Positions 2 through 9,867 of a stretch of 64,000 nt of DNA are shown piece after piece (position 1 is the stretch's first letter; the number at the start of each line of letters is the position of its first letter). Location of the stretch: positions 15,886 through 79,885 of the forward strand of contig CAKZLY010000021.1 in NCBI GenBank assembly GCA_937127445.1, read 5' to 3'. The stretch comes from an uncultured Ignavibacteria bacterium. GTDB lineage: Bacteria; Bacteroidota; Ignavibacteria; Kapaibacteriales; UBA2268. The notes beneath the pieces are model-generated. The model searched no databases. It was not told the DNA's origin and saw nothing but the letters and a program-made list of their open reading frames with translations. A program made the translations under genes and the position numbers.

Positions 2-475
2 TTCATTCCTGAACGGCACATTCATTTCATTGAGCAAAACGGCTTCAGTTTAGCACATTTTTTCGAGTCCGCAAACAAATTCGAAAGTTTTTTAAGTAAT
101 TTAATATTAAATGATACATCGGACGAAATTTTTGAACAGGTGAAAAACGAAATTCAACAAAGTTTTTCGCATCTGACTTCTATTCTAAGCGAAACCGACA
201 TTTCTCTCATTAGAACTTTGGAGAGCTACTCCCACAAATCATCTGAGTTCGTTGACAACTTACATAAGAAGTATATTTCCGCTCTCAAAAAGAAAAATTC
301 CGATTACATAGGAAAGTTTAGAAAAATTCGAAGTATTATTCTGCCAAACGAACGTTTGCAAGAAAGGCAAATTTCACCAATAAATTTCATAAATATTTAT
401 GGATTTGAAAATTTTTCTAAAATTTTAAATGAAATAGCCGATAATTACGTTAAAGGATTTATAATTTATTCATAA
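2..475 (+). CDS. Hypothetical protein, 5'-truncated at window edge. The frame is open from nt 2; ORF track starts at GTG 140.
   Basis: No stop codon in frame from position 2 to 475, so it continues upstream of the window. No recognisable motifs. Confidence 0.35.
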   Translation, partial: FIPERHIHFIEQNGFSLAHFFESANKFESFLSNLILNDTSDEIFEQVKNEIQQSFSHLTSILSETDISLIRTLESYSHKSSEFVDNLHKKYISALKKKNSDYIGKFRKIRSIILPNERLQERQISPINFINIYGFENFSKILNEIADNYVKGFIIYS

Positions 476-3700: not shown

Positions 3701-4048
3701 TTATTTTGAATAAATTAATACCGCTTTTTGTTTATTCAGTTGCTTTAATTTTTCTCCTGTATCCTTAGTCTTCTTTCGCAACAATTCTAAATTAACAGAA
3801 TCCATTTTAACAATCAAATTGATTTTTTCATTCCATTCATCTTGTTGTTTAGCAACAAATTCCTTGCCAATATCTGTTTCGAGCAAAGATTTCAGATAAA
3901 GGATGTTTTTCTCTCTTTCTTCGTAAAGATAAGAAATTTTCTCGAGATCTTCGAGTTCGAAATTGCCATTATCCAGTGATTCGAAAATACTTCTAGTATT
4001 TTCGAGAACAAGTTCGATGTTTTTCAGTATTTCATTATACTTTTGCAT
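3701..4048 (-). CDS. Flagellar export chaperone-like protein (FliT/FlgN-like?), hypothetical
   Basis: 115 aa, helical, acidic. Positioned between flaG and flgM on the same strand. No diagnostic motif. Confidence 0.25.
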   Translation of the reverse strand: MQKYNEILKNIELVLENTRSIFESLDNGNFELEDLEKISYLYEEREKNILYLKSLLETDIGKEFVAKQQDEWNEKINLIVKMDSVNLELLRKKTKDTGEKLKQLNKQKAVLIYSK

Positions 4049-6035: not shown

Positions 6036-6389
6036 CTATTCAAGATTAAAGGCTTTAGCCCAAGCGTTGCGAAGTTCGGAAATGATGTAAAGCGCTTCGT
6101 CGTATTTTTTCTGGAAAATACATCTTTGACAATATTCATAAAGCCGATAGAGACGGGTTGCAGTTTCTTCGTATTCGAAATTAAGAGCACCCATAAGTTC
6201 AACAAGCACTCTGCTCATTTTATTAACATCCTGTCTTTTGCAGCTTACAATGAATAAATCATACATTTTAAGGATAATTTTTTCTTTGCTCCACGAAAGG
6301 ACTTCCTGTTCGAGATAAGCAGGAATTTTTTTGTCTTTTCCGCCACCATACATTTTCGAGGCGGCAAGTTGTTGTGCTTGTGTCAACAT
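6036..6389 (-). CDS. fliS: Flagellar export chaperone FliS
   Basis: FliS family: YLEQEVLSWSKEKIILKMYD ... ELMGALNFEYEETATRLYRLYEY. About 117 aa. Confidence 0.85.
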   Translation of the reverse strand: MLTQAQQLAASKMYGGGKDKKIPAYLEQEVLSWSKEKIILKMYDLFIVSCKRQDVNKMSRVLVELMGALNFEYEETATRLYRLYEYCQRCIFQKKYDEALYIISELRNAWAKAFNLE

Positions 6390-6420
6390 AAATTCATCCT
6401 CACATTTTGTTTTTTAAATG

Positions 6421-6450
6421 GAGCGGTATCTTCCTGATACCGCTCTTTAG
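6421..6450 (-). terminator. Hairpin downstream of flagellin copy 1 (weak intrinsic terminator)
   Basis: GAGCGGTAT-loop-ATACCGCTC stem between the flagellin stop and fliS. The T-tract is poor. Confidence 0.3.
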
Positions 6451-6472
6451 TTAAAGCAAAAACTATGCCCAA

Positions 6473-7450
6473 TTACCTAAACAATTGCAAGAATTGTTGT
6501 GGGTTTTGGTTCGCTTGGGCAAGCGAAACAAGCGATGCTTGCTGCAAGAACTGAGACTTAATTAGCTCCATTTGTTCTGTTGCAACATCTGCATCTTCAA
6601 TACGTGATATTGCAGCTTTGTAATTTGTAATTTGCGATTTAAGCACATTTTCCTGTGAATTGATACGAACCTCAATTCCGCCGAGGTACGATGCGACTTT
6701 GTTAATATTATCAATAGCCATAGCAAGCGATGAAATTGTTCGAGTAATAGCAGAAGTAGCCCCTACGTTATTAAATATACCAAGGTTAGATGCTGAAACA
6801 GAGTTTAGGTCTTCAAGATTCAGTCCTGCAACTCCAGCAAAGTTTGTTGCAGCACCAGTTGTAGTGCCACGGACAGCAGTTGCTTCGCTTGTGGCATTCA
6901 AATCGAAGATACCATTAACATTAAAATCAGGATTGCTTGTAGTTAAGTCAATTCTAATTTTCATTAAGTTGTTGTTTGCGTAGTAACCAGTAACCCACTC
7001 ACCTGTAAAGTTACCTTGAAGTAGTTGCTTGCCGCCGAACACAGTTGAGTCTGTTATAAACTGAATTTGCTGAGCAAGGCGGTATGCACCTTTTGCGAGA
7101 GCAACTTTTTCGTCAGTTCCCAAAGCTCCTGATGATGCTGTTGCAGCGGCATCTTTGATTTGGGTAACAAGGGTACTAATCTGGTCAAGAGCATCTTGAG
7201 CTATTGATGTAACGTTTTTCGCATCGCCTGCTGAATTGAGTGCAGCTTTCAATGCACCATTGCGAGCTTGCAATGCACGTGATGTAATGTAACCAGAAAC
7301 GTCGTCAGCGGCAGAGTTAATTCTCTTGCCTGTCGATAAACGTAGTTGGCGCAAAGCAATATTATTGCTGGACGCCGTTAAAGAGTTGTAAGCATTTTCC
7401 GCGGGAATATTCGTCCGTATTCTTGAATCACCGCTAATTGCTGTTGGCAT
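6473..7450 (-). CDS. fliC: Flagellin (copy 1)
   Basis: Flagellin N- and C-terminal helical domains: LRLSTGKRINSAADDVSGY near the N-terminus and ...QASLVSLAQANQNPQQFLQLFR at the C-terminus. Has its own sigma-28 promoter. Confidence 0.85.
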   Translation of the reverse strand: MPTAISGDSRIRTNIPAENAYNSLTASSNNIALRQLRLSTGKRINSAADDVSGYITSRALQARNGALKAALNSAGDAKNVTSIAQDALDQISTLVTQIKDAAATASSGALGTDEKVALAKGAYRLAQQIQFITDSTVFGGKQLLQGNFTGEWVTGYYANNNLMKIRIDLTTSNPDFNVNGIFDLNATSEATAVRGTTTGAATNFAGVAGLNLEDLNSVSASNLGIFNNVGATSAITRTISSLAMAIDNINKVASYLGGIEVRINSQENVLKSQITNYKAAISRIEDADVATEQMELIKSQFLQQASLVSLAQANQNPQQFLQLFR

Positions 7451-7522
7451 AAGCCCCTCCCAAAGTAAAGTATTATTTTGGTGCCTCCTCCACCAAAAAT
7501 TTACATCCTAATCTTATTTATA

Positions 7523-7549
7523 TTATCGGCAATTATAACAAAAACTTTA
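7523..7549 (-). promoter_or_regulatory. Sigma-28 (FliA) promoter for flagellin copy 1
   Basis: Minus strand reads TAAA-N15-GCCGATAA, a perfect match to the sigma-28 consensus, about 75 nt upstream of the start codon. Confidence 0.7.
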
Positions 7550-7585
7550 ATAAAAAAGGACGGAAATTTTTCCGTCCCGAAAAAT
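7550..7585 (-). terminator. Rho-independent terminator of flagellin copy 2
   Basis: Minus strand: GGGACGG-loop-CCGTCC followed by TTTTTTATT. Confidence 0.65.
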
Positions 7586-7625
7586 TATTTTTCTTAATTT
7601 TCTATCCAGCTAATTCAAAATAATT

Positions 7626-8612
7626 TTATCTGAATAGCTGCAAGAACTGTTGTGGATTTTGGTTGGCCTGGCTTAATGATACCAAAGAAGCTTGCTGCAA
7701 GAATTGTGACTTAATGAGTTCCATTTGTTCTGTTGCAACATCTGCATCTTCGATACGCGAAATAGCTGCTTTGTAGTTTGTGATTTGAGATTTCAACATT
7801 GCTTCCTGCGAGTTGATACGCACCTCAATACCACCAAGATATGATGCAACTTTGTTAATGTTGTCAATTGCCATTGCAAGTGATTGCAAGGTTCTAACAA
7901 CATTGGACTTACCAGTCGAATCATTTAAGTAACCGAAATAGCCCAAATCTGAGGAACTGATATTGTTGAACTCTTCCAAATTTAAGCCTGTAACACCTGC
8001 AAAGTTATTCGATGCGCCAGATACTGAACCACGAACGGCAGTTGCTTCGCTTGTAGCATTCAAGTCGAACAATCCATTGACGTTAAAGTCCCTGTTGTTC
8101 ACAGTGAGGTCAATGGAAATTTTCATCAAATCGTTGTTTGCATAGTAACCAGTAACCCACTCACCTGTAAAGTTACCTTGAAGTAGTTGCTTGCCGCCGA
8201 ACACAGTTGAGTCTGTTATAAACTGAATTTGCTGAGCAAGGCGGTATGCGCCTTTTGCGAGAGCAACTTTTTCGTCGGTGCCCAAAGCTCCTGATGATGC
8301 AGTTGCAGTAGCGTCCTTAATTTGAGCCATTAATGAGTAAATCTGGTCAAGAGCATCCTGCGCAATAGATGTTACGTTCTTTGCATCTCCGGCAGAGTTG
8401 AGAGCAGCTTTCAAGGCACCATTGCGAGCTTGCAATGCACGTGAAGTGATATAGCCCGATACATCATCAGCTGCTGAGTTAATGCGTTTGCCTGTGGAAA
8501 GGCGCAGCTGGCGTAGAGCTATGTTACTGCTTGATGCTGATAATGCATTATAGGCATTTTCTGCCGGGATGTTGGTACGAATGCGGCTATCTCCGCTAAT
8601 TGCTGATGGCAT
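7626..8612 (-). CDS. fliC: Flagellin (copy 2, tandem paralog)
   Basis: Same conserved termini as copy 1 with a divergent central domain. Has its own sigma-28 promoter. Confidence 0.85.
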   Translation of the reverse strand: MPSAISGDSRIRTNIPAENAYNALSASSSNIALRQLRLSTGKRINSAADDVSGYITSRALQARNGALKAALNSAGDAKNVTSIAQDALDQIYSLMAQIKDATATASSGALGTDEKVALAKGAYRLAQQIQFITDSTVFGGKQLLQGNFTGEWVTGYYANNDLMKISIDLTVNNRDFNVNGLFDLNATSEATAVRGSVSGASNNFAGVTGLNLEEFNNISSSDLGYFGYLNDSTGKSNVVRTLQSLAMAIDNINKVASYLGGIEVRINSQEAMLKSQITNYKAAISRIEDADVATEQMELIKSQFLQQASLVSLSQANQNPQQFLQLFR

Positions 8613-8693
8613 AATAAACCTCCATGTAAATTAATTGTTTTTTCGGGCATCCTGCCATCAATATTTATTTTTAGTCCTATCTTCTTATTTTAT

Positions 8694-8720
8694 TTTTCGG
8701 CATTTTTCTGAAAAACTTTA
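8694..8720 (-). promoter_or_regulatory. Sigma-28 (FliA) promoter for flagellin copy 2
   Basis: Minus strand reads TAAA-N15-GCCGAAAA (one mismatch to GCCGATAA), about 80 nt upstream of the start. Confidence 0.6.
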
Positions 8721-8799
8721 ATCCTTCAATGTTTTTCAGATTTGCATTTTCCTTTCATTCATATTATCGTCAACTTTTTTCTTTACTTTAGCATTTTTT

Positions 8800-9867
8800 T
8801 TAAAAATTCATTATTTTTTTTACTGCATCGAATATCTTTTCAGGTAGAAGGTGTTCTAAACAGAAGTACTCATCGTTTACACATTTCGGGCTAAAAAAGC
8901 ATTTGCACTCTTTATCTGGCTCAACTATTATGCCTCGACCATAAAGTTCAAATTCGTTTTTATTGAATATATTATTTATTAGCACAACTTTTTTTCGCAG
9001 TCCAATTGCGATATGCAGCCCCATTGTTACAGCAGTTACCACCAAATCGCATTGATTAACAAGCGAAATGAACGTGTTTAAGTCAAAGAAACCAAAATAC
9101 TGTGCTCCGCTCTTTTGCGATATTATCGTGTTCTGCTCGTGCTCTTGCTCCCCACCTAATAGAATTACCTTGTAACCCTCATCTTGCAGATGTTTAGCAA
9201 GTTCTATCCAATATTCTTGTTTCCATAGTCGTGAAACCCAGCGAGCGCCACATCCGGTATTCAATCCGATTACACCTTTCCCTCGATCTGAGATATCCCA
9301 CTGCTTATCAGTTCTAACTTCCAACTCGTATTCTTCGCCGGAAAATTCATAGCCGCATATTTCGAAAATTTCTTGAAGATAATTTTTTGTGTTTGCTTTG
9401 TTGACATCGTCGAAAAGCCCTGTTAAATATTTGTGCATAGCACGTTGGTTTGCGGGCATTGGCTTGCCTTCGACAAGTGTGAAGCCATCGATATAATCTG
9501 CATTCAGTTGCGACGCCAACGCACAAGCGTGATAGTCTTTGTCAAGATTGATTACTTTGAAAAAATGCACGCTGCGCAAACTTATTACAGATTCAAGATT
9601 AAATAGCAACACTTTATCGACTGAGGACGGAATAATTTCAGGCGAGTTTGTTACCCACCAAAGCATACATTTTGGGAACTCCTGTTTTATGCGTTTGATA
9701 AGAGGTGTTGTTCGTATTACATCTCCAATAGCACCAAGCTTTATTATTAATATATTTTCTTTCGATGGTGAATATTCGGGACAATTTTGGCAATGGTAGC
9801 CATTTTTTTTATGCGGACGGCAGGGAATATCGCCGCGAAAATACCTGCAATCTTCTTTGAACAGCAT
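8800..9867 (-). CDS. GT9-family glycosyltransferase (heptosyltransferase-like) with Cys-rich N- and C-terminal extensions
   Basis: GT9 motif LIIKLGAIGDVIRTTPLIKRIK. N-terminus has CxxxxxxxxC...CxxC; C-terminus has CKC...PKC...FC. Confidence 0.7.
   Translation of the reverse strand: MLFKEDCRYFRGDIPCRPHKKNGYHCQNCPEYSPSKENILIIKLGAIGDVIRTTPLIKRIKQEFPKCMLWWVTNSPEIIPSSVDKVLLFNLESVISLRSVHFFKVINLDKDYHACALASQLNADYIDGFTLVEGKPMPANQRAMHKYLTGLFDDVNKANTKNYLQEIFEICGYEFSGEEYELEVRTDKQWDISDRGKGVIGLNTGCGARWVSRLWKQEYWIELAKHLQDEGYKVILLGGEQEHEQNTIISQKSGAQYFGFFDLNTFISLVNQCDLVVTAVTMGLHIAIGLRKKVVLINNIFNKNEFELYGRGIIVEPDKECKCFFSPKCVNDEYFCLEHLLPEKIFDAVKKIMNF

Follow-up and report, generated by a model that had tools for sequence, protein, structure and literature searches.

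A probable case of recent, lineage-specific gene conversion between tandem flagellin paralogs of an uncultured Kapabacteria-like bacterium

The window, by which we mean the whole 64,000-nucleotide stretch analysed, carries two flagellin genes arranged in tandem on the minus strand of the genome of an uncultured Kapabacteria-like bacterium. Both proteins contain Pfam domains Flagellin_N (residues 11-149) and Flagellin_C (at the C-terminus), scoring 73-78 bits (cut-off 26.6) and 67-68 bits (cut-off 23), which places them among bacterial flagellins of the FliC/FlaA family; solved flagellins are matched down to E = 9e-23. The genes fliS, fliD and flaG lie directly downstream of the pair, an order that is kept in relatives and gives the locus a flagellar gene context. 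The closest of these relatives are metagenome-assembled genomes (MAGs) labelled Candidatus Kapaibacterium, Kapabacteria or Ignavibacteria. The genes and the candidate signals around them are as follows:

7626..8612 (-): flagellin gene 1, the upstream paralog, 328 aa (ORF and Pfam)
6473..7450 (-): flagellin gene 2, the downstream paralog, 325 aa (ORF and Pfam)
8694..8720 (-): putative sigma-28-type promoter upstream of gene 1 (consensus match)
7523..7549 (-): putative sigma-28 (FliA)-type promoter upstream of gene 2, TAAAGTTT-N11-GCCGATAA (consensus match)
7557..7578 (-): intergenic terminator-like hairpin and T run (terminator scan)

The sigma-28-type consensus used, TAAAGTTT-N11-GCCGAWAA (also given as TAAA-N15-GCCGAWAA), is matched three times in the window against 0.21 matches expected by chance, and the sites upstream of the two genes would, judging from this match to consensus, act as promoters. 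The third match lies near the start of the window (418-444, +). With the terminator-like hairpin between them, the two genes look like separate transcription units. Directly upstream of the pair is a gene for a family-9 (heptosyltransferase-like) glycosyltransferase (8800-9867, -), whose position is kept in L131-L134 and which might have a role in flagellin glycosylation. After flaG there is a conserved ORF of 115 amino acids (3701-4048, -) without a Pfam match, found in the same position in relatives; judged by this position, it could encode a flagellar chaperone-like protein.

Along the codon alignment of the two genes, overall nucleotide identity is 77%, distributed very unevenly. In windows of 60 nt it amounts to 68-88% in the conserved termini and 45-60% in the variable middle, whereas gene nt 301-480 reach 92-100%. 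The high-identity segment can be described at two levels, an identical core and an extended block around it:

6981..7087 (-): identical core of the conversion tract, gene 2 copy (gene nt 364-470, codons 122-156); all 107 nt agree with 8143-8249
8143..8249 (-): gene 1 copy of the same core, at gene nt 364-470 (direct comparison)
6971..7138 (-): extended block of high identity, gene 2 copy (gene nt 313-480, codons 105-160), 4 mismatches to 8133-8300
8133..8300 (-): gene 1 copy of this extended block, at gene nt 313-480 (alignment)

The four mismatches of the extended block fall at gene nt 333, 336, 363 and 471. The sequence-only reading that drew attention to this region had paired 6981-7140 with 8143-8302 and described a 107-nt perfect run, three mismatches and a background of 80-85% identity. 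The perfect run is there and the genes do diverge outside the block, but the 160 nt (offset 1162) hold four mismatches, at 7088, 7115, 7118 and 7139 (three only if the interval is ended at 7138), and the background is about 77%. The peptide that it gave for the block, ...VFGGKQLLQGNFTGEWVTGYYANN..., is indeed encoded there. In alignment with solved flagellins, the block takes in the second of the long D1 helices together with the FGG-x-LL-x-G turn (FGGKxLLxG hairpin), which is conserved. The 5′ edge of the block carries an imperfect hairpin, GATGCTGTTGCAGCGGCATC, in gene 2 (window 7134-7153, +); its counterpart in gene 1 is less palindromic, and its place at the block edge may be a coincidence.

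The contrast between block and remainder was evaluated on codons that encode the same amino acid in both paralogs. Such codons differ at 4 of 55 positions within the block (codons 105-160) vs. 122 of 224 outside it (Fisher p = 2.5e-11), and up to 34 informative codons in a row are identical, compared with a maximum of 25 in 100,000 permutations. A GENECONV-like test, in which the polymorphic sites of a 12-gene alignment were permuted, returns codons 105-160 as the tract for the window pair (p <= 2e-4, Bonferroni 0.013). Synonymous divergence (Nei-Gojobori) follows the same pattern: pS between the paralogs is 0.78 in both conserved termini, a level of saturation at which dS is not computable, while dS in codons 105-160 is 0.106 and in codons 122-156 it is 0. 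The identity along the alignment is thus not uniform, and the excess of identical runs that had been predicted is significant by both permutation and the GENECONV-like test; in other words, the paralogs show a segmental excess of identity.

The same tandem pair in the same context was recovered from ten other genomes or contigs (L001-L005, L076-L078, L132 and L134). Their paralogs differ at 8-13 of the 107 core positions, compared with 0 of 107 in the window pair, and at the relatives' rates the probability of finding no difference is 1e-6 to 2e-4. Comparison of the related flagellin loci, as the sequence-only reading had proposed, thus shows homogenisation specific to the lineage of the window. 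Neighbor-joining trees of the five closest species differ in topology between flanks and block. In the flanks, the upstream genes (type 1) and the downstream genes (type 2) form separate ortholog clades with 97-100% bootstrap and the window pair is grouped in 0% of replicates; in the block, the window pair is grouped in 99% and the type clades in 0%. Inside the tract, therefore, the two paralogs of the window cluster with each other, and outside it each clusters with its orthologs. Furthermore, both window paralogs share a synonymous C at gene nt 354 and an A at nt 396 that occur in no relative, a pattern that would rarely arise by parallel mutation.

The only rival explanation to survive these comparisons, itself unlikely, is an artefact of assembly, binning or polishing, in which one paralog's consensus replaced the sequence of the other while the real copies are diverged in the block. 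All close relatives are MAGs or metagenome contigs, so the window is probably one too, and a copy-paste artefact, too, would yield shared "derived" states; exact look-ups with both window proteins, with the 100%-identical database entry P0001 and with P0021 found no second assembly of the same genome. Against such an artefact, the copies are about 77% identical in the flanks and about 90% identical in the block of relatives (about 10 differences in 107), levels at which short reads would map uniquely and de Bruijn graphs would keep the copies apart. Five assemblies of the species represented by L001 (L001, L076 and L131-L133, from four source datasets) give identical 10-in-107 differences between the paralogs, so that homogenisation by assemblers is not the rule at this locus. 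The window contig is unbroken through both copies, and tracts of a similar kind are found in two genomes from other projects, L005 and L003.

Import of a fragment from the DNA of another strain, by homologous recombination into one or both paralogs, is improbable. It draws some support from cross-type similarity of the block between genomes, since gene 2 of L002 resembles gene 1 of L003 (95% identity) and gene 2 of the window resembles gene 1 of L001. The sole sequence identical to each copy, however, is the one 1162 bp away, the nearest foreign sequence differing at 6 of 107 positions, and two independent imports, or an import that happened to equal the resident paralog, would be far less parsimonious.

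Slightly less probable still is selection at the nucleotide level, by which both paralogs would have to keep an element that acts as RNA or DNA, for example a regulatory structure, a promoter within the gene or a binding site. The block does lie in a highly expressed gene and contains a weak sigma-70-like match (8171-8142, -), but its nucleotide sequence behaves as unconstrained. Between orthologs (window vs. L001), dS is 0.466 in the block and 0.42-0.60 in the flanks, and the paralogs of relatives differ at the 8-13 core positions given above. In 33 distant tandem pairs, the fraction of synonymous codons that differ is 0.51-0.54 in the block vs. 0.49-0.61 elsewhere, without any dip. A search of 6300-8900 against Rfam at E <= 1 matched no family, and a sigma-70 promoter scan gave fewer promoter-like hits than shuffled sequence (4 vs. 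6.5). Because neither the orthologs nor the distant pairs show a dip, the block is without nucleotide-level constraint; and because it is free to vary in relatives, its identity in the window reflects a historical event in this lineage rather than constraint on this segment or slow substitution there. Chance or locally strong codon bias, for which only the high expression of flagellin can be adduced, is negligible, since the observed run was not reached in any of the 100,000 permutations and synonymous sites vary freely in orthologs and distant paralog pairs.

The reading we prefer, to which we assign a probability of roughly 0.86, is a recent gene conversion between the tandem flagellin paralogs that is specific to this lineage, and on this point the sequence-only reading, which saw in the block the footprint of recent inter-paralog recombination, agrees with the non-uniform identity, the excess of runs and the lineage specificity found here. 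The event would have been a short, non-reciprocal homologous recombination in the lineage of this genome, by which at least 107 nt, probably about 117 nt or more, were copied from one gene into the other. It would have come on top of an older conversion of codons ~91-170, common to the closest sister species, that had already lifted identity there to about 90%; this higher identity probably favoured RecA-type recombination in the segment over the saturated remainder of the genes. The extended block, accordingly, is partly the product of older conversion common to the clade.

The limits of the recent tract are defined with different precision at its two ends. The 3′ edge is sharply defined, with the tract ending at nt 470/471: at nt 471 gene 1 has T and gene 2 has C, and both agree with their respective ortholog types in the L001 group. 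The 5′ end lies somewhere between gene nt 337 and 364. The perfect run begins at nt 364, preceded at nt 363 by a C that is unique to gene 1, and the shared derived C at nt 354 suggests that the recent tract reaches at least window position 7097 in gene 2 and 8259 in gene 1. Since the mismatch at nt 363 falls between nt 354 and the core, either the tract is shorter than nt 354-470 or a later mutation or patchy mismatch repair has intervened. The 5′ third of the 160-nt block (gene nt 313-363) holds 3 differences in 51 positions vs. 2-10 in 51 in related genomes; save for the shared derived nt 354, it is no more similar than in relatives and was rejected as part of the recent event. What is specific to the window is therefore the 107-nt core, with a possible extension as far as about gene nt 354.

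The direction of copying is suggested by a few sites. Gene 2 carries the type-1 state at nt 402, the sole fully diagnostic site of the core, and at the near-diagnostic sites 438, 444 and 465, and in the block tree the window pair is sister to gene 1 of L001. Total distances across the core barely discriminate (6 differences to gene 1 of L001 vs. 8 to its gene 2), and as a guide to the donor they were discarded as uninformative, with 6-10 differences to either type. With moderate confidence, on one diagnostic and three near-diagnostic sites, the upstream gene 1 was probably the donor and the downstream gene 2 the recipient. As to age, the core shows no difference over 24.3 synonymous sites, which by our own Poisson bound limits the dS of the pair to less than about 0.12 at 95%, at most about one quarter of the dS of about 0.47 to the closest species sampled.

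The consequences for the protein differ from those first proposed. At codons 105-160, both paralogs of the window, like those of L001, L002 and L003, specify one and the same amino-acid sequence, and dN within the window pair is 0. Because both paralogs already had the same protein sequence there, the conversion would have been silent and would not have created a mosaic protein. The suggestion that it offers a route to antigenic or structural mosaicism of the filament consequently fails for this tract, which alters no amino acid. A route to mosaicism nevertheless exists in the group, since one tract in a related genome reaches into the variable domain. This tract, an independent one, belongs to L005 (JBBRJR010000033.1, L005:1696-3912), covers codons ~126-214 and leaves a single difference in 60 nt at gene nt 471-530.

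L003 (CALGXJ010000128.1, L003:6001-8133) has a separate tract that covers codons ~97-132 (p about 0.001); its paralogs differ at 2 of 51 positions over gene nt 313-363. When 46 distinct tandem pairs from Kapabacteria and Ignavibacteria were compared, p <= 0.001 was reached only by those of the window, L005 and L003, and the best segments of the remaining pairs are scattered along the gene. This scatter, together with the 33 distant pairs that lack a dip in the block, led us to reject a hotspot or a constraint common to the phylum. Conversion is thus recurrent in the genus-level clade, and clustering is seen in the close clade only. The L005 paralogs cluster together in every region of the gene, which may be due either to concerted evolution of the whole gene or to an independent duplication.

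In the four closest sister species (L001, L002, L134 and L003) and L004, synonymous divergence between paralogs is lower at codons 91-170 (0.29-0.38) and 276-300 (0.30) than elsewhere (0.46-0.57), which suggests older, shared conversion tracts at both places. A bolder and rather doubtful extension is that the segment comprising D1 helix b and the beta-hairpin (codons ~91-170) acts as a self-reinforcing conversion hotspot in the Kapaibacterium-like clade. An ancestral conversion would have been followed by those of the window (105-160), L003 (~97-132) and L005 (~126-214), the tract ends being trimmed by selection for paralog-specific residues. Residues of this kind are found beside the tract, with YSLMAQ vs. 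STLVTQ at codons 92-97 and D/N at codon 161. If this hotspot with trimmed ends were real, the two flagellins would be functionally distinct components of the filament.

Exchange between flagellin genes has precedents. In Campylobacter, sigma-28 serves flaA and sigma-54 serves flaB; in contrast, both genes of the window carry sigma-28-like promoter sequences. For flaA/flaB, the studies that PMC8535712 cites report concerted evolution and intragenomic recombination (Alm, Guerry & Trust 1993; Meinersmann & Hiett 2000). The likeness, as far as those citations describe the system, lies in two tandem flagellins on the same strand with separate promoters, between which segments are copied by homologous recombination and identity becomes mosaic. 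The Campylobacter genes, on the same account, are nearly identical over most of their length and their exchange affects protein sequence and motility repair, whereas the paralogs described here separated long ago and are saturated at synonymous sites, the recent tract spans only ~107-170 nt and is silent, and the bacterium is an uncultured, environmental, Kapabacteria-like one without host immune pressure.

Tandem fla genes of Alteromonadales provide a second parallel, being closer within than between genomes, which was ascribed to long-lasting, recurrent gene conversion, with independent tandem duplication named by the authors as the alternative (Commun Biol 2018, PMC6053082). There, concerted evolution involves the whole gene, whereas the tract in the window is sharply local, and duplication is excluded in the window because in the flanks each copy groups clearly with its orthologs (97-100% bootstrap). 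As bacterial gene conversion has been reviewed (Santoyo & Romero 2005, FEMS Microbiol Rev, as cited in PMC8535712), it consists of non-reciprocal transfer between dispersed or tandem repeats that depends on identity and leaves short tracts; from what that citation conveys, the present case does not differ in principle.

The process is therefore a known one of which this is an additional instance, and as an ordinary finding it leaves the understanding of flagella or of recombination unchanged. Its value is that of a clear and well-delimited case of conversion, in an uncultured phylum, between tandem paralogs of ancient divergence, which indicates that flagellin paralogs of Kapabacteria exchange sequence. 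In practice, paralogs will be mixed in trees or typing schemes built from this region of flagellin. The two identical 107-nt copies, 1162 bp apart, form a perfect direct repeat that would, by inference, permit a deletion leaving one chimeric flagellin gene; the repeat is also a likely breakpoint for short-read assemblies.

Finally, L006 (3568-4554) and L007 (313-1299), from a neighboring lineage with 81-82% amino-acid identity, have a single flagellin gene before fliS-fliD-flaG. Either the duplication is younger than the split from that lineage, or one copy was lost there, for example by recombination between repeats.
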